Assembly: GCA_018062445.1 (NCBI GenBank)
Contig: JAGOSG010000003.1
Coordinates: 29,842-93,841 of the forward strand
DNA length: 64,000 bases
From: Minisyncoccota bacterium
Lineage (GTDB): Bacteria; Patescibacteriota; Minisyncoccia; Phycocordibacterales; Phycocordibacteraceae
Direction: 5' to 3'
Made by a program: the position numbers and the translations under genes. Shown here piece by piece: positions 1 through 62,614 of the stretch. Numbering within the stretch: the stretch's first letter is position 1; every line of letters begins with the position of its first letter. A model generated the notes under the pieces. The model was not told the origin of the DNA, did not search any database, and was given only the letters and a program-made list of their open reading frames with translations.

Positions 1-19
1 GCTTTCAGGGGGACATTGG

Positions 20-60
20 TTAGGGGACAAAGTTAGCTTTCGACCCCTCGCTTTTAGGGA
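20..60. repeat. family B (TTAGGG/GTTTAGGG-type) motif copy
   Basis: ttaggggacaaagttagctttcgacccctcgcttttagggagg. Confidence 0.4.
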
Positions 61-74
61 GGAGTTGGAGGTTA

Positions 75-112
75 GAAGCTGGAAGCCGACAGCTGAAACC
101 TGACAGCTACTC
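75..112. repeat. family A intergenic repeat copy
   Basis: gaagctggaagccgacagctgaaacctgacagctactc; 3' of virB4. Confidence 0.6.
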
Positions 113-1918
113 AGATGCTTCCCTCTTCTGTTGGGCTATTGCAAGCAGTTGAGATGGGTCTGAGGTGATTATTTGGTCTTCAGTGTAGGATGCAATTATT
201 TTTATGGCGACATGTTTGAGCCCCGCGAAGAAAATCCCCTCACCCACATCAGATTCAAGCAGAAGGTATTTTTCTTCCTCCGTGAGGTTGAATGTTTTTT
301 GTACGGCATCTATGGATGTTGGTGATTGCTTCAAAAGAAGTTGGATTGATGAGTTAGTAAGCATCGGCAGTCCGTAGGGTGATTTTAGGAAGTCCTCAAC
401 ATCTTGAGTAATGGTAGCGAGACCAAGATAGTATTTTCTTCCGCGCTTTGCCATTCCGTAAAGGAACGCTGCAGTATCTTCTGATTTCATCATCCACCAC
501 GCCTCATCAATAACAAGAAGTCGTTTGCGCAAATCTTTTCTCACCGCATTCCAAATGAAGTGCGTAATGATGTACATCGCAATCGTTTTCAGTTCATCCT
601 CCATGTTCCGAACCGAGAACGCAACGAACTTTTTGTTGATGTCCACATTGGTTGGTCGATTAATAAAGCCAGACCATGTGCCCTTGGTGTATTTTGTGAT
701 TCTCTGAACTAAAGACTCACTTCCTTCCATGCCAGCAAGTACCAATTCGAAGTCAGAAAGGAGCGGTGGTTCCATGTTGGTGAAGTCGTTCGCACCAGTA
801 ATGTCTTTGAGTGCATATGTTTCTGTAATTGCGCGGTCAATAATTGCATCTTCTTCAGGAGTAAGACCTCCGAGCATTAAGCGAAATAGTCCCACGAGGT
901 TGATGATGTTTGAGCGGAGAATATCAGCTGGCGATTCATCTTCGCGAGGCACAGGCAAATCAAAAGGATTGATGCGATTTTCTGATGAGAGCGAGATATT
1001 GAAAAATCTTCCACCCACCGCATTTGCAAGATATTCATACTCGCTTTCAGGGTCTATAACAATGACCTCCGTGTCGAACATCAATGACCTCAAGATTTCA
1101 AGTTTTGTGCCGTATGATTTTCCTGAACCTGATTTTGCAAAGGTTACCGAATTGTAGTTTTCAAGTGAAAATCTATCAAAAAGAATCAATGATGAGTTGT
1201 GTCTGTTTATGCCGTAGAGAATTCCTTTATCGCTCGTAAGGTCGAAGGAAATAAACGGGAAGAAACTTGAGAGTGGTGCAGAATTCATCTTTGAATTAAC
1301 CGCCAGTTGGTCATCCCCTATTGGTATGACACTCTTGAATCCTTGTTCTTGTTGGAACAGGGCGGGTTTTATGTAGACAAGCTTTGAGTCAAGAATTGAG
1401 CGCATTTCTGCTTCAGTTTTGTCCAATTCGTCTTGGTTTGTGCCGTAAATTGAGATATAGAGGCCTACATCAAATACTCGTTCTTGCGCTTGTTGGAGTT
1501 GATTTCTGAGTTGCTCGATGTCTTGGTAGGCCGTGTCGAGCATTGGATCCCGCACCATCCCTTTTTCTTGACGGGTCATGATTTGGCTCTGTACCTCAGC
1601 AACTTTTTTCTGAAACTTCCGGAGAATTGCCGCAGTGTCTACAGGATGAATGAATATAGAAATATCGAGCACTCGGTCACGATTAATGATTGGTGCGAAC
1701 CATGTTCCCGATAGGAATCGAGGATACGAAATTACGTAGAATGTGCGCACCAACTTGTCGCCCAAGTTCATTTCACGCGGGGTAATTTTCAGAGCTGATG
1801 GTGCAATGATGTCTGCAAAGTCGAGTTTCGCAGCTTCATAAATATCCTTAGGTAAAAAAGGAGTTAGGGCGTCCTTATTTTTCCCAGCGTTACCTAAAAA
1901 TGTATCGAAGATTCCCAT
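107..1918 (-). CDS. virB4: VirB4/TrbE/TraE-family conjugal-transfer ATPase, C-terminal ATPase portion of a split gene
   Basis: Walker A FAKSGSGKSY, Walker B LLVIDEAWWMM, CagE/TrbE/VirB-type N-region; 603 aa. Confidence 0.8.
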   Translation of the reverse strand: MGIFDTFLGNAGKNKDALTPFLPKDIYEAAKLDFADIIAPSALKITPREMNLGDKLVRTFYVISYPRFLSGTWFAPIINRDRVLDISIFIHPVDTAAILRKFQKKVAEVQSQIMTRQEKGMVRDPMLDTAYQDIEQLRNQLQQAQERVFDVGLYISIYGTNQDELDKTEAEMRSILDSKLVYIKPALFQQEQGFKSVIPIGDDQLAVNSKMNSAPLSSFFPFISFDLTSDKGILYGINRHNSSLILFDRFSLENYNSVTFAKSGSGKSYGTKLEILRSLMFDTEVIVIDPESEYEYLANAVGGRFFNISLSSENRINPFDLPVPREDESPADILRSNIINLVGLFRLMLGGLTPEEDAIIDRAITETYALKDITGANDFTNMEPPLLSDFELVLAGMEGSESLVQRITKYTKGTWSGFINRPTNVDINKKFVAFSVRNMEDELKTIAMYIITHFIWNAVRKDLRKRLLVIDEAWWMMKSEDTAAFLYGMAKRGRKYYLGLATITQDVEDFLKSPYGLPMLTNSSIQLLLKQSPTSIDAVQKTFNLTEEEKYLLLESDVGEGIFFAGLKHVAIKIIASYTEDQIITSDPSQLLAIAQQKREASE

Positions 1919-1920
1919 AA

Positions 1921-2592
1921 TTATATAAATGGTGCGTTAGTTTGATCCACAACGATTGGTTTTTCCAATTCCCCAGGATTGAACTCTTTGTAGAGAAGTT
2001 CTATGACCTCTTCAGTGCCGAGAGGAACAGTTCGCACACCTGTTCGGGCCAACCCTTGTTCCACTACCCCCATTCTCTGCTCTAACTGTGTACGGTGTTC
2101 CTCAAAACCAATAGCATTTTCATCTCTCGATGACAGATTTGTCTTCCCAAACACTTTATTTTGCACTGCCTTTTTTATATCAAGAGCTGGTGGAGAGTAT
2201 GGAACAACAATAAAAAAATGTTTACTCATAATGTTCGCTCTCTCAATGAATGTTTTGATGAACTCTATATATTCGCGCACCTGTATTTTCATCAGTTCCT
2301 CTGTCTGCGCTTTAAGTCGTTCCTCCAGAAGTGCTATGTACGGCCTGATATCGAGTTTTCGAGATTGTATGAAAAACTGAACACTGAAATCAAGCGAATT
2401 CATAAAGCTCTGAAATTGCGAGAGTATGGCGTTTTGTTCGTCCTCTGACTTAAGTGCAAAGTTAATACTTGAAGCAAGCATTACACCGACGAGTGTGCCG
2501 CCTTTCATTACCATCACGCCCCCACGGACTTCCTTTACTGGAACGAAGTCCTGAGCCGCTTTTGTTTTTTTTGTTTTTTCGTCACCAGACAT
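1921..2592 (-). CDS. VirB4 N-terminal domain encoded as a separate ORF (split/frameshifted VirB4)
   Basis: DFVPVKEVRGG..INFALKSEDEQ..SVQF matches Gram-positive VirB4 (PrgJ/TcpF-type) N-termini; stop TAA then 2 nt then ATG of the ATPase ORF. Confidence 0.6.
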   Translation of the reverse strand: MSGDEKTKKTKAAQDFVPVKEVRGGVMVMKGGTLVGVMLASSINFALKSEDEQNAILSQFQSFMNSLDFSVQFFIQSRKLDIRPYIALLEERLKAQTEELMKIQVREYIEFIKTFIERANIMSKHFFIVVPYSPPALDIKKAVQNKVFGKTNLSSRDENAIGFEEHRTQLEQRMGVVEQGLARTGVRTVPLGTEEVIELLYKEFNPGELEKPIVVDQTNAPFI

Positions 2593-2600
2593 AATGTAAT

Positions 2601-2635
2601 AAGCTTCCAGCTGTCAGGTTCCGGCTTTCAGCTTC
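2601..2635. repeat. family A repeat, left inverted repeat flanking the four-helix-bundle gene
   Basis: aagcttccagctgtcaggttccggctttcagcttc; encodes the last residues of the ORF. Confidence 0.6.
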
Positions 2636-2997
2636 TCAATCATTGAAGCAAGCATTCGCCCGATCTCTTTTAGGGAAGCGATACAATCATTATACTCCAC
2701 CTCTTTGATGAATCTTAGATCTTTTGCAATTTCAATTTGTGTTTCCAGCTCACAAAGAGAGCCAACTGACATATAAAGAAATTGCACGAAATCTTTCCTG
2801 CTTCTGCGTCCCCTTCCCTCCGCGATATTCGATGGTATGGATATGGCAGACCGTCTCATCTGGGATGTCAGCCCAAACTTTTCTTCAGTCGGAAAAGAAT
2901 TTGTTATTTTATATAAGCGAATTACGAAGTCTTTTGATTTTTGCCACACCACTAAGTCACGATACGAGAGTATTTTTTGATTTTGAGTTGATGCCAT
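2614..2997 (-). CDS. four-helix-bundle protein (23S rRNA intervening-sequence protein family)
   Basis: YRDLVVWQKS..FP..E.FGLTSQ.RRSAISIPSNIAEG.GR signature; flanked by inverted repeats. Confidence 0.8.
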   Translation of the reverse strand: MASTQNQKILSYRDLVVWQKSKDFVIRLYKITNSFPTEEKFGLTSQMRRSAISIPSNIAEGRGRRSRKDFVQFLYMSVGSLCELETQIEIAKDLRFIKEVEYNDCIASLKEIGRMLASMIEKLKAGT

Positions 2998-3005
2998 TGA
3001 AGTTA

Positions 3006-3040
3006 AAAAGCTGGAAGCTGACAGCTGGAACCTGAAACCT
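3006..3040. repeat. family A repeat, right inverted repeat flanking the four-helix-bundle gene
   Basis: aaaagctggaagctgacagctggaacctgaaacct; inverted relative to 2601-2635. Confidence 0.6.
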
Positions 3041-3479
3041 ACCCCCGCTGTTTCTTGTCACTATACATACTCTCCTTTATATCCAAGCTCCACGCTAAGT
3101 CTTTAATTTTGTTTGAAGTGGCTGAGGGGGCATATTTTGCTGGATCTTCAGCGGGTGTTTGCCCAGGTAGAACAATTTCGTCAGGGAGGACAGTTTTTGA
3201 TTGTTTCTTTTCCCAAATATAGAGTTTTGTGCGAAAAAGGTACTGAAAGCCAGATTCGAGAGCGTTTATAAGTGGTCGGTCATTAATTTTATAGAATGCG
3301 AGCCCAGCACCCAACAGTGCGATTGGTCCACCAATAACTATTGCCAACCAGTGAGGCATAACAAACCAGAGGGCTACGAGAAACCCTCCTCCCCCGACGA
3401 GGTATATAAACTGTACTGCGGTCAGAGGGCCGAAAATTTTGTCTTCAACTTCAACGAATTGAGGAACTTGGAATTGCAT
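3039..3479 (-). CDS. PrgI/VirB3-like conjugation membrane protein
   Basis: N-terminus MQFQVPQFVEVEDKIFGPLTAVQF typical of PrgI family; two TM helices; sits upstream of VirB4. Confidence 0.6.
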   Translation of the reverse strand: MQFQVPQFVEVEDKIFGPLTAVQFIYLVGGGGFLVALWFVMPHWLAIVIGGPIALLGAGLAFYKINDRPLINALESGFQYLFRTKLYIWEKKQSKTVLPDEIVLPGQTPAEDPAKYAPSATSNKIKDLAWSLDIKESMYSDKKQRG

Positions 3480-3486
3480 ACTAATA

Positions 3487-3600
3487 AGAGTATAGCGTTT
3501 AGTAGTTAGCGTCTAGTGTTTTTCATCTAGTCATGGCTTCTAAAAACTTTTATAGCCATCGAAGTTAATGGAGTATTTCTTTAGAATTTCCCTAAACTCT
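3487..3600. repeat. family B motif pair in inverted orientation upstream of the PrgI-like gene
   Basis: tatagcgtttagtagttagcgtctagtg ... ccctaaactctatccactaacccc. Confidence 0.45.
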
Positions 3601-3622
3601 ATCCACTAACCCCTTTCCACTG

Positions 3623-4396
3623 TTACTCTACTGGCTCTCGGTACGGGTCAACCCCTCCTTTGTACGCTGGTTTTGGCGCTTCACTTACCTGTGGTTTTAT
3701 CGATGTGGGGTTTTGGGTTGCGGATGGAGTGCTATCTGTGGTTACTCCTTCTAATTTTTCTTCTGAGATTGGCGTTACCGGTATATCCGTTTCAGTTTTT
3801 TTAGTTTCAGGAGATGCATCTGCAACTAGTCCTAGTTTTTCCGCAACAATGCTTACTGAGGGTGTGTTTACGATTTCTTTTAATGTGACCGATGCTGTTG
3901 CGAGGCGTTTTTTTTCAGCTTCAGCCTCTGCTATTTCTTCAGGGTCAACCCAGCCTTCGATTTCTTCTTTTTCTGCGAGAGCGTCTAATTCTGCATCGGT
4001 CGGCATTCTGGTAGCTTCAGCTCCCTCTTGTGGCTTCGGGCCGAACTCTTCAGCATCCCACCCAGGCTCTGGTTCCATGATATTTTCACGGAGACGGCGA
4101 CTCGCCTCTTTGAAGATGCGGTCATTGAGATCATTTACTATCTCACGCATGGTTGCACTGCTAAGCTCAGGAAGAGCTTGATGGAGGTTGGTTTCAAGTG
4201 CCGACATAGGCTCTAGACCAAGCAGGGTAAGATTGGCAACCTTGCTCATTAAACTACCTTGCCATAAGTTAAGGTGGTTTTTTTTGATTAATCCGTCGTA
4301 TATTTCTGTGATTGTGTTCGAGCTTAAAAAGTCGCGAACTGGTTTCGGCAGTTTATCTTTTGCTTCCGCCCTCTCTTCTTTGGAGTATGTTTTCAT
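3623..4396 (-). CDS. hypothetical acidic protein, low-complexity C-terminus
   Basis: ORF in T4SS-like cluster; no recognisable domain. Confidence 0.45.
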   Translation of the reverse strand: MKTYSKEERAEAKDKLPKPVRDFLSSNTITEIYDGLIKKNHLNLWQGSLMSKVANLTLLGLEPMSALETNLHQALPELSSATMREIVNDLNDRIFKEASRRLRENIMEPEPGWDAEEFGPKPQEGAEATRMPTDAELDALAEKEEIEGWVDPEEIAEAEAEKKRLATASVTLKEIVNTPSVSIVAEKLGLVADASPETKKTETDIPVTPISEEKLEGVTTDSTPSATQNPTSIKPQVSEAPKPAYKGGVDPYREPVE

Positions 4397-4402
4397 ATAT
4401 TG

Positions 4403-7400
4403 TTAACTTCCAAAAGTATCCGTGTAAGCCGTCTCTTGTTCAGGAGTTAAGTGTTTCTGTTTACGCATTTCATCTAACCATGCTCGTGCTGAGTCACGTA
4501 TTGTACCCCCTGCTTTTACAGCGCGAATGAGGCCCCAGATAATAGCTCTCATTTTTGCTGGTGCAATGTACGTGTCTGTTTCGATGGCCTTTAGCTGCCT
4601 ACTGTCGAGTTCCTGAATGAAGTCTCTGCTTCCTAACATTTCTTCGGGCAATTCTTTCACAAGTTCAGCTGCTTCTGCTGGTGGAAGGTTATGGATGAGT
4701 GGTGCAATATCTTCGATGACCGTCGGCGTTTCAGGCACAGGAGGTGTCTCAGGGCTTTCTGGTGCTGCGCCTTCAGTCTGTATAGTAGTTGGCGCTGAAC
4801 CCGAAGAAGTTGCTCGACTTCGTAGTGCACTTGCAATACGAGATCGTGGTGTTTCTTCAAATTCGATTTGCCTCTCGATTGGCTGTCGGCTCACGGCAGA
4901 TGCATTCCTCTCCGCTATAGTCTCTATCTCGCTTGTTCGTCCTAGTCGGGACTCAACTTCTTCAAGTGACGCCATACCAAGACGTCTTCGTTCCTCGTTT
5001 ACCCTCTTTCGCATTTCGTCTGTGACCTCGTATTTTGATTGGCCGTCAGGGTTAGTGAGAATCCACTTTATGGCACTCTCATCACCGTAGACCAACATAC
5101 TGACACCCTGGTCTTCCATCCATACCGTATCTTTTGCAAGTCCGTATGCTTGACCAGCGTTAATGTATTTACCCATAAGCCGCTTACCCAAATCTTCCTG
5201 CTTCATTTCGTCTTGGATTTCGTTTGCCGCCTTTCCTTTGGCATATTTGAAGAAGTTATCTTCGGCGGTCTTTCTTTTTTCTGCCGCTCTGCGCACGTCT
5301 TGGTTTCGGCGGATCTTTCTCAGTTGCGCTTCCTGATCGCTCGTTATGATGCCCTTCTCGGTTTGTTCGCGCATTCGTGTATCAAACTCTTTGTCTGAGA
5401 GAGAGTCACCGTTTTCATCAAATGCATTTCTGGAAAGGAGATTTCGTTCCTGTTCACTCAGTCCCCTAGAAATGCTATTGCCTTGTTCATCTTTGTCTTG
5501 GATTGTGATTGTGTTGAAGACAGCGCTCGCTTCATCGTCAATTTTGAAGTTTATGTTTCCACGACGACGCTTGAGTGCACGCAACTTTCGTTTCTTTCCG
5601 CTCGCGATTCTAGAGTTTTTTTGTAGCTGTGTGTAAACCCCACTTGTTATTGCATCGTTGAATATTTCATTTTCCTGTAGACCCATTTCGAGACCTGGGT
5701 TTGACGTAAAGAAGTCAATTAATTCGTCAGCGGAGACGTTTTTCTTAAGCTCCTCATGGAGCCAGTAGCGTTTATCATTATACTCATCGCTGTATCTAAG
5801 TATTTTGCCCGCTGCCTTAGCTTCGTCCGTTAGTCTTCCATCAGCGGTGAGGTATTTTTCGTCTCCTTTCTTTGTGTCGACCGCATCCACGACTCTTGCT
5901 TCAAAGGCTTGGGCTGAAGTCATAACACCACCGAGGCGAGCCATTCGTATCTCGTCTCTTGTTTCACGGTCTATTGTCTTGTCCTTAACGATTTCGAGGG
6001 ACTGTTCTGTGGTGAGTGCTCGTGCCAACCTTTTGAACTCTGCTTTGTTACGTTTGTACTCTTCCTTAATGAGGTCAGTCGAGACATCGGCAAATGGCTG
6101 TTTCAGTTGATCAGTTGCATCGGCCATGGTGAGCATGATTTTCTCTCCATTCTTATCTACTGCCCCCGTATCGAACTTCTCCGTTCGCTTTAAGCGGTCG
6201 TTGTACGCGAATTTATTTTCCCAACCCCAGTTTCCGTCCTTATCTTTTACCCAACGTCTTCCTTCCCAGAGCGGTACGCCGTTCTTATCGATCTTGTTTC
6301 CATTTTGGTCCACCTTATCTCCGTCTTGCTTTCGCTTTGCTGTCCACTCCGCCCTCTCCTCGTCGTTCATCTTGTGCCAGTTTTTAGGAAGACCTGCTTT
6401 CACGAGGTCTTCCTTGCTGGATTTTCCGGTTATCTTTATGTCGTCTTCACCTTTCGCCACTGCCTTGTCGAACGCAGCTTTTACTGTAGCTTCTTGATCG
6501 AGGTGACCTCCTTTTTTTAGAGCATCCTCCTTTTTCTTGACGTAGTCGCTGACATTCGCGAGTTTGATAGTGCGTTGTTCTCTTTGCTCCTTCAAGTCCC
6601 CATAACTTGTCTTGCTACCAAACTTTGCATCTTTAAGAAACTTAGTGCCTTTCTGTATGCCACGGTCAAGAGTGGCGAGTCCTGGAACTTGGTCGAGGCG
6701 TCTTCCGCCAAGGAATCCCCATTCTCTTGCTGCAATTTTCTCTTCGTACCAGTGTCCAAGTTTATCGCCACCAAATCTCCCGATAGTTTCTCGCGCTGTC
6801 ATAGCCCCAACGTTAGTAGTAACCCAATTTGAAGCCTTGTATACATCGGTAAGGCGTTTTGCAGCTTCACTCATACCTTTAGCGATTTTGAGTGACTGCA
6901 ACATAAAGATTACTGCCACCATGAAAGTGAGTAGTGTGCCAATGAGGTTGGGACTTTCTCCGCTGAATGCGCCACTGGAATTATCAAGAATAGTGAGAGA
7001 AAAACCAACAAGAAGAAAGTACACGGGGGCAAAAAATGCCTGACTGAAAAGCGCTTCCCACCACTCCTTGGCGTATCTATTTATTTGCGGGATGGCAAGA
7101 CCGGCTATGCCGATTGGTGAGGTGATGAGAATGAGAATCAATGCGACGAATCGTCCCAATAATAGTGTGATAGCAGACAGAAATACAAATATTGTGATAC
7201 CAATGACTACGATAGCCAAAAGATCTTGCACGATTGCCATCCACTGGGAATCTTGTTTGATATCCCCAACTTTTTCATCTGCCAGATATGCCGCTATGTT
7301 GTGATTGTTGGTCCGGATGACTCTGTCAAAACGAGAAACAATGGTACAGCTCTCCCTACAATTTTCTGTGGATATGGTTGCCTTGTAGATTGCTGTAGCG

Positions 7401-8011
7401 AGAAAGTTAGAAGAATCAATAACAGCTCCTGCGAAAAAGAAACTAAAGTTTACAAGAAGAGCTGCAATGATGAGTCGCACCAAAAGTTTTTGGGCGTTTA
7501 TTGCTGCAAGATGCAGAATGGTACCAATGGCAGTTGCAATAAGGCCACCAATTATAGCGAGGTTTGCAAGGTCACGCATAATACGCCACGCGATTTGTAT
7601 ACCAACAGCGTCTGATGAGGTGACAAAGTGCCCCATGTTGACGACTAGCTGCTCCACAACGAAATTGAAAAAGCTTCCTACGAGGAAAAGAATAAATGTC
7701 ATTATTTGCACCAGTAGCCAGGTGATTATATGGAGGATGCCCCCAATAAGCTCTCCAAGAGGGTCTATCACGGCATCTTTTATTGCTTCCGCTATCCTGG
7801 CACCAGCCGCACCTTGTTCTGCTGAGTAGGTGGCTTCTGCAGTTTGTTGAGCTGTCGCAGCTTCAGGTGCAACAGTTGCAAGACCGCCAGCCGCCCCGCT
7901 TGCTCCAGGCTCCCCAGCAAATGCTAGATGTGAAGGCACCACAAACCCAGCGAGAGTAATGGTGAGTAAAAGAATTAAAAAAACTTTCTTCATGTCTAAT
8001 AGGTTCTGCAT
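4403..8011 (-). CDS. VirB6/TrbL-like polytopic membrane protein with ~800-aa charged coiled-coil-rich C-terminal extension
   Basis: Signal-like N-terminus, ~6-8 TM helices in the first 400 aa, then K/E/D/R-rich hydrophilic region; 1202 aa. Confidence 0.6.
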   Translation of the reverse strand: MQNLLDMKKVFLILLLTITLAGFVVPSHLAFAGEPGASGAAGGLATVAPEAATAQQTAEATYSAEQGAAGARIAEAIKDAVIDPLGELIGGILHIITWLLVQIMTFILFLVGSFFNFVVEQLVVNMGHFVTSSDAVGIQIAWRIMRDLANLAIIGGLIATAIGTILHLAAINAQKLLVRLIIAALLVNFSFFFAGAVIDSSNFLATAIYKATISTENCRESCTIVSRFDRVIRTNNHNIAAYLADEKVGDIKQDSQWMAIVQDLLAIVVIGITIFVFLSAITLLLGRFVALILILITSPIGIAGLAIPQINRYAKEWWEALFSQAFFAPVYFLLVGFSLTILDNSSGAFSGESPNLIGTLLTFMVAVIFMLQSLKIAKGMSEAAKRLTDVYKASNWVTTNVGAMTARETIGRFGGDKLGHWYEEKIAAREWGFLGGRRLDQVPGLATLDRGIQKGTKFLKDAKFGSKTSYGDLKEQREQRTIKLANVSDYVKKKEDALKKGGHLDQEATVKAAFDKAVAKGEDDIKITGKSSKEDLVKAGLPKNWHKMNDEERAEWTAKRKQDGDKVDQNGNKIDKNGVPLWEGRRWVKDKDGNWGWENKFAYNDRLKRTEKFDTGAVDKNGEKIMLTMADATDQLKQPFADVSTDLIKEEYKRNKAEFKRLARALTTEQSLEIVKDKTIDRETRDEIRMARLGGVMTSAQAFEARVVDAVDTKKGDEKYLTADGRLTDEAKAAGKILRYSDEYNDKRYWLHEELKKNVSADELIDFFTSNPGLEMGLQENEIFNDAITSGVYTQLQKNSRIASGKKRKLRALKRRRGNINFKIDDEASAVFNTITIQDKDEQGNSISRGLSEQERNLLSRNAFDENGDSLSDKEFDTRMREQTEKGIITSDQEAQLRKIRRNQDVRRAAEKRKTAEDNFFKYAKGKAANEIQDEMKQEDLGKRLMGKYINAGQAYGLAKDTVWMEDQGVSMLVYGDESAIKWILTNPDGQSKYEVTDEMRKRVNEERRRLGMASLEEVESRLGRTSEIETIAERNASAVSRQPIERQIEFEETPRSRIASALRSRATSSGSAPTTIQTEGAAPESPETPPVPETPTVIEDIAPLIHNLPPAEAAELVKELPEEMLGSRDFIQELDSRQLKAIETDTYIAPAKMRAIIWGLIRAVKAGGTIRDSARAWLDEMRKQKHLTPEQETAYTDTFGS

Positions 8012-19058: not shown

Positions 19059-19085
19059 GCGGGTATCCTAACATAGACAGGTCAT

Positions 19086-19152
19086 AGGTGTCAGGTTCCA
19101 GCTGTCAGCTTCAAACCTCTCCCTAGAAGCTGAAACCTAGCACCTTGAACCT
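19086..19152. repeat. family A repeat copy (extended)
   Basis: aggtgtcaggttccagctgtcagcttcaaacc...gaagctgaaacctagcacc; upstream of the traR-like start. Confidence 0.6.
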
Positions 19153-22726: not shown

Positions 22727-22745
22727 AAAGTGTCTGCTGTTACAA

Positions 22746-22788
22746 AAAGCTGAAAGCTGAAAGCTGGAACCTGACACCTGAAAGCTTC
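22746..22788. repeat. family A repeat copy
   Basis: aaagctgaaagctgaaagctggaacctgacacctgaaagcttc; between NYN stop and pnp start. Confidence 0.6.
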
Positions 22789-23420: not shown

Positions 23421-23456
23421 ATTAGGTTTTAGGTGCTAGCTTCTAGGAACTAGCTT
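23421..23456. repeat. family B leader motif upstream of the NYN gene
   Basis: aaattaggttttaggtgctagcttctaggaactagc; coding sense ..cctaaaacctaatttATG. Confidence 0.5.
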
Positions 23457-23583
23457 AATGAAAATAAGTAATTAATTTAAAAATATCGACCTCTTGAGTG
23501 TAGACGGTCTAAGGTCAGAGTAGCTTACAAGAAGAACGGATATAGCCGTCTCTTCATACTACTCCCCGTTGAGTAAAAAAGAT

Positions 23584-27978: not shown

Positions 27979-28050
27979 TGCTCCCGGAGGGATTCGAACC
28001 CCCAACGACTGCTTCGAAGGCAGTTATGATATCCATTTCACTACAGGAGC
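27979..28050 (-). tRNA. tRNA-Arg (anticodon TCG)
   Basis: Manual fold: acceptor gctcctg/cgggagc, anticodon loop cTTCGAa, T-arm ggggg-ttcgaat-ccctc. Confidence 0.85.
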
Positions 28051-28172: not shown

Positions 28173-28243
28173 GCGGGTATGGTTTAGTGGTAGAATGCGT
28201 CCTTGCCAAGGACGAGACTCGGGTTCGATTCCCGATACCCGCA
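28173..28243 (+). tRNA. tRNA-Gly (anticodon GCC)
   Basis: Acceptor gcgggta/tacccgc, anticodon loop tTGCCaa, T-loop ttcgatt; CCA not encoded. Confidence 0.9.
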
Positions 28244-29282: not shown

Positions 29283-29353
29283 TCGGGGCGCCGAGAATCG
29301 AACTCGGTCTATCTGCTCCCAAAGCAGACGTACTACCGGTATACTACGCCCCG
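29283..29353 (-). tRNA. tRNA-Pro (anticodon TGG)
   Basis: Minus-strand fold: acceptor cggggcg/cgccccg, anticodon loop tTTGGGa, T-loop ttcgatt. Confidence 0.85.
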
Positions 29354-35670: not shown

Positions 35671-35725
35671 ATTTTTTTATTAGATTTGTATTTTTTATTC
35701 GTTTATTTTTCCCTTCTACTTTGTG

Positions 35726-35757
35726 TATGTATCACTGTAGTACTACAGTGATACATA
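35726..35757. promoter_or_regulatory. perfect 32-bp palindrome TATGTATCACTGTAGTACTACAGTGATACATA (copy 1)
   Basis: Exact self-complementary 32-mer about 55 nt upstream of the zinc-ribbon/hisG start; identical copy at 36378. Confidence 0.6.
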
Positions 35758-36051: not shown

Positions 36052-36375
36052 TTATTTTTTATGCAGTCGAGAAATGATGGTGCTGTATCCGCCCCGTCCA
36101 TGGTGGAGCCAATGGGAAACACGACTCACTGTCGTAGTTGATGCACCTGTTTCGTCTGCTGCGTTGCGGTAGGAAACATCTTTGGTAAGGAGGCGAGCAA
36201 TAGCAAAACGCTCAGCAAACGCTTCCAGCTCTGCCTTAGTGCAAAGGTCACGCATGAATGCAGAACACTCCTCACGATTTTTTAGTGAAAGAAAGGCAGT
36301 ATATAAAGCCTCTAGGTTTTGCTTCGAACCTGAGGTTTTTGCAGAGGCTTTGTTTGTGGTGTTCACTCTATTCAT
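36052..36375 (-). CDS. TrpR/YerC/YecD-family DNA-binding protein
   Basis: HTH LTKDVSYRNAADETGASTTTVSRVS resembles Trp-repressor family; start taken at internal Met so the CDS begins 3 nt downstream of palindrome copy 2. Confidence 0.6.
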   Translation of the reverse strand: MNRVNTTNKASAKTSGSKQNLEALYTAFLSLKNREECSAFMRDLCTKAELEAFAERFAIARLLTKDVSYRNAADETGASTTTVSRVSHWLHHGRGGYSTIISRLHKK

Positions 36376-36377
36376 GG

Positions 36378-36409
36378 TATGTATCACTGTAGTACTACAG
36401 TGATACATA
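36378..36409. promoter_or_regulatory. perfect 32-bp palindrome (copy 2), putative autoregulatory operator
   Basis: Identical to 35726-35757; immediately upstream of the TrpR-like gene. Confidence 0.6.
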
Positions 36410-36533
36410 CTGTAGCAGAGAGATGTAGATGAAGTCAAGTTGGGCGGAAACGGGGCTAGGTTGGGGGCAGATGATGTCGAGCCGAAAGCAGATGTTGCCT
36501 TAAAGACCTTTTGTGTCTTGGGAAGATAGATTG

Positions 36534-37694: not shown

Positions 37695-37706
37695 CTTGTT
37701 AGTTTA

Positions 37707-37735
37707 CAGGTGCTAGGTGTCAGGTTCCAGCTTTT
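37707..37735. repeat. family A repeat copy
   Basis: caggtgctaggtgtcaggttccagctttt; 13 nt upstream of the protease start. Confidence 0.55.
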
Positions 37736-37786: not shown

Positions 37787-37857
37787 GCGGGATTAGTTTA
37801 ATGGTAGAACATCAGTTTTCCAAACTGATAGCAAGGGTTCGATTCCCTTATCCCGCA
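37787..37857 (+). tRNA. tRNA-Trp (anticodon CCA)
   Basis: Acceptor gcgggat/atcccgc, anticodon loop tTCCAaa, T-loop ttcgatt. Confidence 0.85.
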
Positions 37858-45479: not shown

Positions 45480-45520
45480 TTAGGTTTTAGTGATTAGGGT
45501 ATAGAGTTTAGTGTATCAAG
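45480..45520. repeat. family B leader motif upstream of ppa
   Basis: aaattaggttttagtgattagggtatagagtttagtgtatc; the same aaattaggttttag start as at the NYN gene. Confidence 0.5.
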
Positions 45521-47460: not shown

Positions 47461-47547
47461 CCTCCTACCGCCTGTCTCGTTTCAGCTCAACATCGGCGGT
47501 CCCCGAAACGGGATCGGAGGAAAATTGAAGCAATTCAATTTTCCTCC
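47461..47547 (+). promoter_or_regulatory. structured pilB 5' leader with mutually exclusive pairings
   Basis: cctcc/ccgcc...ggcgg/ggagg stems plus a cccgaaacggg hairpin, versus a 14-bp hairpin ggaggaaaattgaa-gcaa-ttcaattttcctcc that reuses the ggagg. Confidence 0.35.
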
Positions 47548-47580
47548 ACTAAACCCTATTCACTAAACGCTCAACCCTGC
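47548..47580. repeat. family B leader motif upstream of pilB (reverse orientation)
   Basis: actaaaccctattcactaaacgctcaaccctg. Confidence 0.45.
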
Positions 47581-50621: not shown

Positions 50622-50623
50622 AT

Positions 50624-50656
50624 GAGGTGTCAGCTTTCAGCTTTCAGCTTTCAGGG
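50624..50656. repeat. family A repeat copy (triple GCTTTCA)
   Basis: gaggtgtcagctttcagctttcagctttcaggg; between pilC stop and the pilin start. Confidence 0.6.
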
Positions 50657-50658
50657 AA

Positions 50659-51074
50659 TGCGGAAGAAGATTTCGCGAGGGATGACACTTATCGAGGTAG
50701 TTGTTGCAGTCTCTTTGATGCTTATAATTTTCTTGGGGTTTTTTGGTGCGTATGCTGCATCCGCTACATTAGTGCAAAGTATCGCGTCGCGGACAAATGC
50801 GAGTGCGCTTATTGCAGGCACTATCGAATATGCGAGAGGGCTTCCCTATGTGAGCGTCGGGGTTGTTGGCGGTGCCCCCCCGGGAGTTTTGGTGTCCACT
50901 GAATCACGAGTTGTTAATAATATTCTGTACACGCTTCGAACAGTGGTGACATATAAGGATGATCCAGCGAATGGCGCAGGTGCGGGCGATTATAAGGTAG
51001 TAAAAGTTGAGGCAAGTTGGAATATACGCGGATTTTCACACAGCATGTCTGCGGTTACCTATGTTGCACCATAA
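50659..51074 (+). CDS. prepilin-type N-terminal cleavage/methylation domain protein (pilin/pseudopilin)
   Basis: KKISRG|MTLIEVVVAVSLMLI class III signal with E+5; start taken at Met downstream of the family A repeat. Confidence 0.75.
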
Positions 51075-53012: not shown

Positions 53013-53090
53013 TACTAGTAGGGGTTAGGGTTTAGAGATTAGCGTTTAGGGAAAATTCCAATTCAAAGCTCTTTCCTAAACCCTTCTCAA
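53013..53090. repeat. family B motifs in both orientations upstream of tpiA
   Basis: ggggttagggtttagagattagcgtttaggg ... ctttcctaaaccc. Confidence 0.5.
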
Positions 53091-59537: not shown

Positions 59538-59578
59538 ATGGGTGAGGGTATAGCGTTTAGGGGATAGGGTTTAGGGAA
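59538..59578. repeat. family B leader motif upstream of sodA
   Basis: atgggtgagggtatagcgtttaggggatagggtttaggg. Confidence 0.5.
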
Positions 59579-59623
59579 ACATCTTCTGAGTAGCTACTCT
59601 AGCCTTGGTGCCATTATATCATT

Positions 59624-60971: not shown

Positions 60972-61010
60972 AGAGTTTAGTTATTAGCCACTAGGGTTTA
61001 GGGACGATTC
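60972..61010. repeat. family B leader motif upstream of rpmB
   Basis: gagtttagttattagccactagggtttagggacg. Confidence 0.45.
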
Positions 61011-61017
61011 CTATTGG

Positions 61018-61734
61018 CTAGTTACTCTTCTCTAGGTACGCAACAATGGTACGACGCTTCCATGCACTTCCGTCAGCATGCTTGTGTTTGAAAGATTTTT
61101 CGATTTTGTGGATAGTGAAATAGGGCTCGAAGAACTCGCGCAGTGCCTCTTCTGTCCACACATATTCAGCCGTGTGTATTTCTGGGTGAATGTACATTCC
61201 CACCTCATCTCCTGGGCTTTCGCGAAGTAGGCGCTTGGCATGAGAATCGTCATCAAGAAGGAACGATTTAAAGAAAAGCCACCCTCCTGGTTTTAAGACA
61301 CGGAGTATTTCAGTTCGTAATTGTTCCCGTCCGGCAGTCTTCAAAACATGCGAGCTCATCATGTCGAGAGTGATAGTGACTGATGCATCTGGCAAGGGAA
61401 TTGGCTTCTCCATATCTTGTACAAAAAATTTGATAGGCAAACCTTCGCCTGCTTTTTTGGCGACAGTGATTGCTACTTCTGAAAGATCGTACCCGACGCC
61501 GCGCATACCAAATGTGTTTGCAAGATATATGAGGTTGCGTCCGTTACCGCATCCAATATCAAGTGCCTGTGCGGTTACATTAAGGAATTTTTTTCCATAT
61601 TCGCGCATCAAGAATCTTCCGAACTTTTCCAAGTCTTCAGATGGTTCGACAGAGAGTGCAAGGTGAGGATTTGCACCACCAGTGCGGTCTGATTTACCGT
61701 ATTCTTTATTCCAGAAATTGTTTTGTCGACTCAT
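61018..61734 (-). CDS. class I SAM-dependent methyltransferase
   Basis: ALDIGCGNGRN motif I; VLKPGGWLF post-I. Confidence 0.8.
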   Translation of the reverse strand: MSRQNNFWNKEYGKSDRTGGANPHLALSVEPSEDLEKFGRFLMREYGKKFLNVTAQALDIGCGNGRNLIYLANTFGMRGVGYDLSEVAITVAKKAGEGLPIKFFVQDMEKPIPLPDASVTITLDMMSSHVLKTAGREQLRTEILRVLKPGGWLFFKSFLLDDDSHAKRLLRESPGDEVGMYIHPEIHTAEYVWTEEALREFFEPYFTIHKIEKSFKHKHADGSAWKRRTIVAYLEKSN

Positions 61735-61737
61735 GAG

Positions 61738-61775
61738 AGTAGCTGTCAGGTTCTAGGTGTCAGCTTTCAGCTTTA
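61738..61775. repeat. family A repeat copy
   Basis: agtagctgtcaggttctaggtgtcagctttcagcttt; directly upstream of the methyltransferase ATG. Confidence 0.6.
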
Positions 61776-62560: not shown

Positions 62561-62614
62561 AGCTTTCAGGTGCCAGCTTTCAGCTTGGGTTAAAACCTGA
62601 CACCTATAACCTGA
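62561..62614. repeat. family A repeat copy in a divergent promoter region
   Basis: agctttcaggtgccagctttcagcttgggttaaaacctgacacctataacctga; between the rlmB and M50 protease starts. Confidence 0.6.

Follow-up and report, generated by a model that had tools for sequence, protein, structure and literature searches.

A four-helix-bundle gene between inverted five-unit arrays in a type IV secretion operon of a Candidate Phyla Radiation bacterium: a cassette resembling rRNA intervening sequences

To our knowledge, the four-helix-bundle proteins of the PF05635/TIGR02436 family have had no assigned function since the 1990s, and they are known chiefly from the intervening sequences of 23S rRNA and as relatives of Avd, a protein of diversity-generating retroelements. 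The family is very large, with at least 7,900 matches at E <= 1e-10 in one database query. For the 23S intervening sequence of Coxiella burnetii, a published description (PMC4990558) gives a terminal stem of 28 bp, a GACAGAT heptamer repeated three times in tandem immediately upstream of the S23p open reading frame (ORF), and cleavage by RNase III where the first repeat begins. Furthermore, the same protein domain occurs in 16S and 23S insertions of Candidate Phyla Radiation (CPR) bacteria (bioRxiv 10.1101/2024.02.27.582315). The present work concerns a gene of this family located in a chromosomal type IV secretion operon, on the minus strand of a 64,000-nt stretch of contig JAGOSG010000003.1 (hereafter, the window) from a CPR bacterium (Pacebacteria-like). 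The gene and two inverted arms, each of which is a tandem array of five 7-nt units and not a unique sequence, form a cassette; the comparison of orthologous operons revealed that gene and arms are gained, lost, and replaced as one unit at operon junctions, and that the protein lineage tracks the sequence of the units. The reading that we favour, and to which we assign a probability of roughly 0.6, is that the module represents an element of the rRNA-intervening-sequence type residing in mRNA, i.e., a promoterless gene plus two inverted five-unit arrays, lying in the sense orientation.

The cassette shares several features with the intervening sequences of Coxiella, Leptospira, Xanthomonas, and CPR bacteria: it encodes a protein of the same family, its ORF lies in the loop of a stem, its terminal stem falls within the 20-30 bp range (the known stems measure about 28-30 bp), and it relies on the host transcript. 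As in Coxiella, AG-containing tandem heptamers are found 5' of the ORF, five of them in the cassette, and the Coxiella unit GACAGAT reads AGATGAC when written in AG phase. A preliminary description of this locus had already proposed a link to the rRNA intervening sequences, and the stem, the tandem heptamers, and the RNase III site of the Coxiella element (PMC4990558) support it. On the other hand, the host of the cassette is a protein-coding operon; the Rfam scan of the window returned tRNAs only, with no rRNA and no RNA family at the arms. Moreover, the cassette gene is under purifying selection (dN/dS 0.05-0.14 among related cassettes), whereas in Coxiella the ORF is in decay and probably unexpressed.

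The preliminary description had placed a 127-aa four-helix-bundle ORF between two inverted arms of about 35 nt, and both the ORF and its bracketing were recovered by the present analysis (Table 1). The protein matches PF05635 with an E value of 1.4e-41 (141.4 bits versus a cut-off of 33.8; profile positions 1-105 out of 106), TIGR02436 with 142 bits (cut-off 24), and the XCC0516 structure (PDB 2gsc) with an E value of 4.8e-23. The RxxxSxxxNxxE motif is kept, R49, S53, N57, and E60 being invariant in an alignment of 29 sequences; among the matches listed, the nearest protein is 99% identical and belongs to a Candidatus Pacebacteria genome bin. The two arms are 89% complementary over 27 nt (2602-2628 versus 3007-3033) and 85% complementary in a second register (2609-2635 versus 3014-3040), with a spacing of 378 nt between them; the fourth unit of the 3' arm (GGCTTTC) is degenerate. 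Their inverted-repeat alignment score is 39, as it is for the cassette copies of the related loci L001 and L002, which are identical to that of the window, while 900 placements of the same size at random positions in related loci give a 99th percentile of 23. In the 64 kb of the window, these arms are the sole long-range inverted repeat with heptamer-periodic arms.

The pairing of the arms, which had been anticipated too, was obtained by folding the RNA of positions 2590-3050 (minus strand), where the arms pair over about 25-29 bp in the minimum-energy and centroid structures alike. When single arms were folded alone, none of them was more stable than shuffled sequences; the arms are thus neither local hairpins nor terminators. 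Scanning positions 1-4600 for promoters and terminators gave counts at chance level, with no promoter-like site within the cassette, and one weak terminator-like match inside the 5' arm carries no weight. The cassette interlocks closely with its neighbours. Its limits fall about six codons before the PrgI stop and 2-3 nt upstream of the TraC-like gene's start codon, the 5' arm takes the first AG of its first unit from the PrgI stop codon TAG, and the C-terminal residues EKLKAGT of the four-helix-bundle protein are encoded inside the 3' arm, which embeds the last seven codons plus the stop codon (2614-2616), in agreement with the earlier statement that the left copy encodes the last residues. 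The insertion point, formerly given as lying between virB3 and virB4, needs to be refined: the upstream gene is indeed PrgI/VirB3-like, but the downstream one is a 223-aa TraC-like piece of a split VirB4.

Table 1. Positions of the cassette, of the operon genes surrounding it, and of the heptamer arrays in the window.
Feature	Position	Strand	Remarks
Entire exchangeable cassette	2596-3047	minus	limits set by the breaks of DNA homology versus L086/L087
Four-helix-bundle protein gene, 127 aa	2614-2997	minus	PF05635/TIGR02436 profile matches
5' arm, five tandem heptamers	3006-3040	minus	AGGTTTC AGGTTCC AGCTGTC AGCTTCC AGCTTTT (sense strand)
3' arm, five heptamers	2602-2636	plus	AGCTTCC AGCTGTC AGGTTCC GGCTTTC AGCTTCT (read on the plus strand)
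VirB6/TrbL-like gene	4403-8011	minus	
257-aa gene	3623-4396	minus	
PrgI/VirB3-like gene, 146 aa	3039-3479	minus	upstream of the cassette; PF12666, E 5.3e-9
TraC-like gene, 223 aa	1921-2592	minus	downstream of the cassette; PF26593; only the N-terminal part of VirB4 models
VirB4 ATPase gene, 603 aa	107-1918	minus	
Array, cassette's own unit family	77-104	plus	just downstream of the VirB4 stop
Gene-less inverted pair, second family (AGCGTTT/AGGGTTT)	3487-3521 and 3587-3621		about 65 nt between the arrays
Gene-less inverted pair	19079-19113 and 19118-19159		
Gene-less arrays	22745-22786, 23424-23458, 37701-37735, 45482-45516, 47544-47578, 50625-50659		
Gene-less arrays (continued)	53020-53054, 59545-59579, 60972-61033, 61741-61775, 62561-62588		

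The same architecture is a property of the protein subfamily in many phyla, and not of this locus alone. We scanned genomes with the 29-homologue alignment and considered the best 80 loci (47-57% identity), which come from Flavobacteriia, several CPR groups, Acidobacteriota, Planctomycetota, Ignavibacteriota, Clostridia, Proteobacteria, and others; in many phyla, the family members sit between unrelated genes. A flanking inverted repeat scoring above the 99th percentile of random placements was found for 75 out of 90 homologous genes, with a median ungapped arm of 27 nt and an arm-to-arm distance of 340-489 nt. The period of the arms is 7 in 52 cases, 8 in 18, and 9 in three, each unit consisting of an invariant AG plus lineage-specific bases (five in the heptamers). 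A phasing of AG over four or more units is seen in 73 and 66 of 101 arms (40-48 for the next-best dinucleotides), and in both arms the commonest number of phased units is five; with a strict 7-nt spacing, five units are present in 20 arms, four in five arms, and six in 5-7. Throughout the 774 kb of all the loci retrieved, 84 five-unit chains were counted at 7-nt spacing and 36 at 8-nt spacing versus one or two in shuffled sequences, the spacings of 6, 9, and 10 nt giving background counts. Furthermore, where close neighbours exist on both sides, 49 out of 52 cassettes run in the direction of both, and extra arrays away from the cassette occur in 36 of the 80 loci; in 44% of these arrays, a unit matches perfectly the five variable bases of the local cassette, versus 3% for random pairs of loci. 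Two further ideas about the arms were dropped. The arms seem to have a polarity with respect to the gene, being AG-rich at the 5' side and CT-rich at the 3' side, but this is the head-to-head rule of any such inverted repeat, which holds on both strands and is no evidence about gene orientation; a role of period 7 in placing stop codons in all frames was discarded because the 5' arm of the window is nearly free of stop codons and some arrays have period 9.

The cassette arms are members of a family of five-unit heptamer arrays that extends genome-wide. In the window, 17 arrays comprise four or more AG units spaced exactly 7 nt apart, versus 2.3 in shuffled sequences; 15 of these lie in intergenic DNA, and the unit count is exactly five in 13. 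Two unit families can be distinguished, i.e., the one of the cassette itself and the AGGGTTT/AGCGTTT type, and the arrays devoid of a gene stand in some cases as inverted pairs and in others singly. The pair at 3487-3621 is located between the 257-aa gene and the PrgI gene, while a possible partner arm of the array just past VirB4 is truncated by the start of the window (bases 1-9); at the corresponding junction, L086 has an inverted pair without a gene, from the other unit family. From 22745 to 62588, arrays of two unit families adjoin start or stop codons of housekeeping genes, the neighbours encoding PNPase, an NYN-domain protein, a protease, PilB, PilC/pilin, and methyltransferases. One ORF listed from 50622 (50622-51074) starts inside such an array; translation likely begins at the ATG of position 50657, and the resulting protein has a leader resembling that of type IV pilins (MRKKISRGMTLIEV; PF07963 N_methyl). 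According to a phmmer search, no further four-helix-bundle gene is present within the window, which also lacks the one cognate to the AGGGTTT-type family.

The most serious rival to our reading takes these arrays as a regulon: the protein would be a domesticated host regulator whose pentamer binds RNA or DNA, the intergenic arrays would be its operators, and the cassette would represent an autoregulated gene. The strong purifying selection on the gene, the arrays found at many operon junctions beside start and stop codons, the five-unit rule, and the agreement of the arrays with the unit sequence of the local gene would all be accounted for in this way. We nevertheless judge it unlikely, both because the same module is found within rRNA genes, a setting in which a regulon would be hard to understand, and because of the behavior of the cassette in orthologous operons.

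A set of 41 related loci was assembled from short contigs and from a metagenome scan with the TraC-like protein, and 36 orthologous operons were compared. The junction between PrgI and the TraC-like gene harbors a cassette in ten loci and is empty in 15 (gap of 2-84 nt), so that the insert-free adjacency of PrgI and the N-terminal VirB4 gene, which the preliminary description had proposed looking for in relatives, does exist. The junction between the TraC-like gene and VirB4, consisting in the window of 2 nt (TAA-TT-ATG) without a cassette, is occupied in eight loci and empty in about 22 (gap of 1-47 nt). A third junction, upstream of PrgI, contains a cassette in L096, L109, and L113, as well as in L114, where it lies directly upstream of PrgI, and gene-less inverted arrays in the window and three relatives. 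All the cassettes of the secretion loci point in the same direction as their neighbours. The idea of a mobile cassette thus finds support in the three junctions occupied among relatives and in the replacement described below; the opposite pattern envisaged earlier, with the same gene lacking flanking repeats in all the orthologous loci, was not seen. As for a host regulator, it would not be expected to vary in presence at a given junction among close relatives, to be encoded at three different junctions of one operon, or to be exchanged for a cassette of a different unit family.

One case of replacement involves L086 and L087, whose TraC-like protein is 96-98% identical to that of the window and in which both flanking genes share 90-100% DNA identity with it. 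At the same junction, however, their four-helix-bundle protein is only 53-54% identical to that of the window and the arms belong to the other unit family; the drop in DNA identity, to 30-68%, coincides exactly with the region from ~3047 to ~2595. The same whole-unit replacement distinguishes L104 from L098 (hosts 90% identical) at the junction between the TraC-like gene and VirB4. The window protein is in turn 76% identical to those of cassettes located at this latter junction in hosts that are 73-75% identical, and the arrays are shared. In general, the cassette proteins group by unit family (mean identity of 0.67 within and 0.50 between families), and not by host or junction.

These comparisons bear on the possibility that an ancestor possessed cassettes at all the junctions, that these were inherited vertically and differentially lost, and that nothing is mobile now. 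In all 36 loci the cassettes are confined to three operon junctions, and some same-junction pairs do look inherited (L094/L103, 93% identical; L086/L087, 96% identical). However, differential loss would hardly leave divergent genes with different repeats between the near-identical flanks of the window and L086/L087, the gene of the window is nearest to cassettes located at another junction in more distant hosts, and the empty junctions are scar-free, down to 1-3 nt; hence, we consider this scenario very improbable.

A mere chance neighbourhood, in which generic intergenic heptamer arrays happen to flank an unrelated small gene, could appeal to the mostly gene-less arrays of the window, but it is already contradicted by the bracketing of 75 out of 90 homologous genes from many phyla (versus a control rate of 1%) and by the arrays changing along with the protein lineage, and the protein C-terminus encoded by the 3' arm also speaks against it, which leaves it barely any credibility.

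The same holds for the view that the protein is an accessory component of the secretion system or the Avd of a diversity-generating retroelement, which we regard as hardly tenable. Its position inside the operon might suggest the former, and a homology with Avd exists (PF22296, E 2e-12; PHROG "Avd protein of DGR", E 3.8e-15), the two proteins having a homologous pentameric four-helix-bundle fold. However, the presence of the gene in the orthologous operons is sporadic and its position variable; the score against the Avd equivalog model NF033474 (49.2 bits) is below the curated cut-off of 80; and neither a reverse transcriptase, searched for among the annotated neighbours and 25 scanned ORFs of the window, nor template/variable repeats are found nearby. 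Inverted tandem arrays are, in addition, not a known trait of diversity-generating retroelements. The retroelement reading was rejected on the basis of the sub-cut-off score and the missing reverse transcriptase. Furthermore, the same family is found between unrelated genes in many phyla, as well as between cas genes, where its members were taken as Cas-associated (PMC3936711). A defence-system role was also abandoned, as the PADLOC models gave no match at E <= 0.01. Only PF05635 and Avd-like models match the protein, which does not qualify as an HUH (Y1) transposase.

Returning to the element of the intervening-sequence type in mRNA, the following scenario can be depicted. The module would be transcribed with the operon, and in the folded transcript its arms are predicted to pair into a duplex some 25-30 bp long, at whose base the PrgI stop codon would come to lie beside the start codon of the next gene. 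By analogy with the 23S rRNA intervening sequences, this duplex is probably a substrate of RNase III, and its processing would render the insertion tolerable. As to the protein, structures 2gsc and 2rld contain five chains each, and XCC0516 is described in two papers citing the original work as a homopentamer of four-helix bundles (Lin et al. 2006, via PMC4990558 and PMC10053308). Five-unit arrays and a homopentameric ring together suggest one subunit per AG unit; hence, the protein, if it forms the ring of its solved relative, probably binds its own arrays in this manner, and the variable bases of the units would set the specificity of binding. Array binding might in turn permit autoregulation, together with the maintenance or spread of arrays. 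The simplest candidate for the movement of the cassette would be exchange between dispersed arrays, although exchange via the flanking genes is also possible.

For the putative mode of binding, the tryptophan RNA-binding attenuation protein (TRAP) offers a functional analogy. It is a ring of 11 subunits that binds (G/U)AG repeats separated by 2-3-nt spacers; the putative similarity lies in a ring oligomer facing an equal number of evenly spaced AG repeats. The folds are unrelated, and the cassette system would pair five subunits with 5-6-nt spacers.

Several observations weigh against the scenario above. No catalytic domain is known in the protein, and there is no recombinase gene in the cassette; when occupied and empty junctions were compared, no target-site duplication was visible. 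The replacements seen in close relatives could stem from homologous recombination through the flanking genes after independent insertions. Among the mismatches between the arms, 65 are transitions compatible with G-U pairing in the sense strand and 80 in the antisense strand (p = 0.24); this lack of a sense-strand G-U excess makes the complementarity look like a DNA-level feature and not the outcome of selection on the sense RNA, and we do not claim covariation evidence for an RNA stem. No gene remnants were retrieved from the gene-less spacers (tblastn, E <= 1), so that an origin of the gene-less pairs from full elements by internal deletion lacks support. Moreover, the match between five units and five subunits is so far a numerical coincidence, and the scan behind the shared architecture covers, out of the whole of PF05635, the best 80 genome matches to this subfamily.

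A more general idea can be advanced tentatively, namely that the PF05635 pentamer is a sequence-specific binder of five-unit AG-heptamer or AG-octamer arrays, the two constituting a self-propagating repeat-gene system distributed across phyla. Such a system might, just as speculatively, colonise the intergenic spacers of operons and the loops of rRNAs, with the five variable bases setting its specificity. A parallel is offered by the repetitive extragenic palindromes (REP) and their doublets (REPIN) with RAYT, in which one gene stands between two inverted copies of a short repeat and further copies of the repeat are scattered through intergenic spacers, singly or as inverted doublets; the RAYT protein is a tyrosine transposase of the HUH class. 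As in REP/RAYT, the cassette gene lies between inverted copies of a repeat also found scattered over intergenic DNA, and the repeat family and the gene lineage are paired. In contrast with RAYT, the protein of the cassette is a small helical member of a pentamer-forming family without a known catalytic site, the repeats are five-unit tandem arrays and not single palindromes, and the cassette itself shifts position between relatives. Miniature inverted-repeat transposable elements (MITEs) are likewise small, non-autonomous, and bounded by inverted repeats; unlike a MITE, the cassette shows no target-site duplication and has no transposase of its own, although an enzyme acting in trans is possible. 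The short tandemly repeated repetitive (STRR) sequences of cyanobacteria are also intergenic tandem heptamers, and we know of no link between them and PF05635-type genes.

The data indicate that the rRNA intervening sequence is one of the habitats of a general module found between protein-coding genes as well, and that the grammar of this module, in which 7- or 8-nt units anchored by AG stand in inverted arrays of five, is widespread. In the full-text literature that we searched, where most subscription journals are uncovered and a prior description is possible, this architecture was not found described outside rRNA, and there was no account of inverted five-unit arrays, polymorphic junction occupancy, or gene-less arrays. 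The agreement between five units and a pentamer makes the function of the protein directly testable by binding assays; array binding, if true, would give a function to the large orphan family PF05635, account for rRNA intervening sequences within a wider class of elements, and hint at what the ancestor of Avd recognised. As far as annotation is concerned, the gene could be misread as secretion-associated, while it is more likely a passenger. Through RNA processing, the arms may also influence the expression of the operon.

Other features of the operon and its relatives deserve mention. VirB4 is split into the TraC-like N-terminal gene and the ATPase gene, which lie in different frames, 2 nt apart in the window, and the split is common to 36 out of 36 relatives. 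In eight of them (L003, L004, L094, L097, L098, L100, L104, and L114), a four-helix-bundle cassette is located exactly within the split; such an insertion may have caused it. The VirB4 ATPase of L098 (3289-6315) and of L102 (4152-7622) has an in-frame insert of about 650 residues near residue 270, and that of L114 (4645-7669) probably has the same insert; it is an intein with a LAGLIDADG_3 homing endonuclease (Pfam), which the window copy lacks. The operon is a hotspot for selfish elements.

In L114, a more distant relative, the junction between PrgI and the TraC-like gene (2888-3489) holds no four-helix-bundle gene and a 137-aa PD-(D/E)XK protein instead (PF13366 PDDEXK_3, E 1e-16), flanked by a 20-nt inverted repeat; this gene may represent a second type of cargo for the same kind of site. 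PrgI is inverted relative to the TraC-like gene in L102 (2604-3449, together with its four-helix-bundle cassette) and in L004 (1-392), which may reflect a rearrangement at inverted arrays. In L096, two gene-less spacers (3293-3504, 210 nt; 4145-4392, 246 nt) contain several unit families in series, e.g., AGTATTC about six times beside TTAGG-type units, and share a 3' part of about 70 nt.

Elsewhere in the window, the four tRNA genes recognised by Rfam are located at 27979-28050, 28173-28243, 29283-29353, and 37787-37857. Moreover, a perfect 33-nt palindrome (GTATGTATCACTGTAGTACTACAGTGATACATA) is present in two copies (35725-35757 and 36378-36410), 620 nt apart, which lie around the start of a 128-aa gene of the Trp-repressor family (36052-36438, minus strand; PF01371, E 2e-23); these palindromes may be operator sites or a small element.

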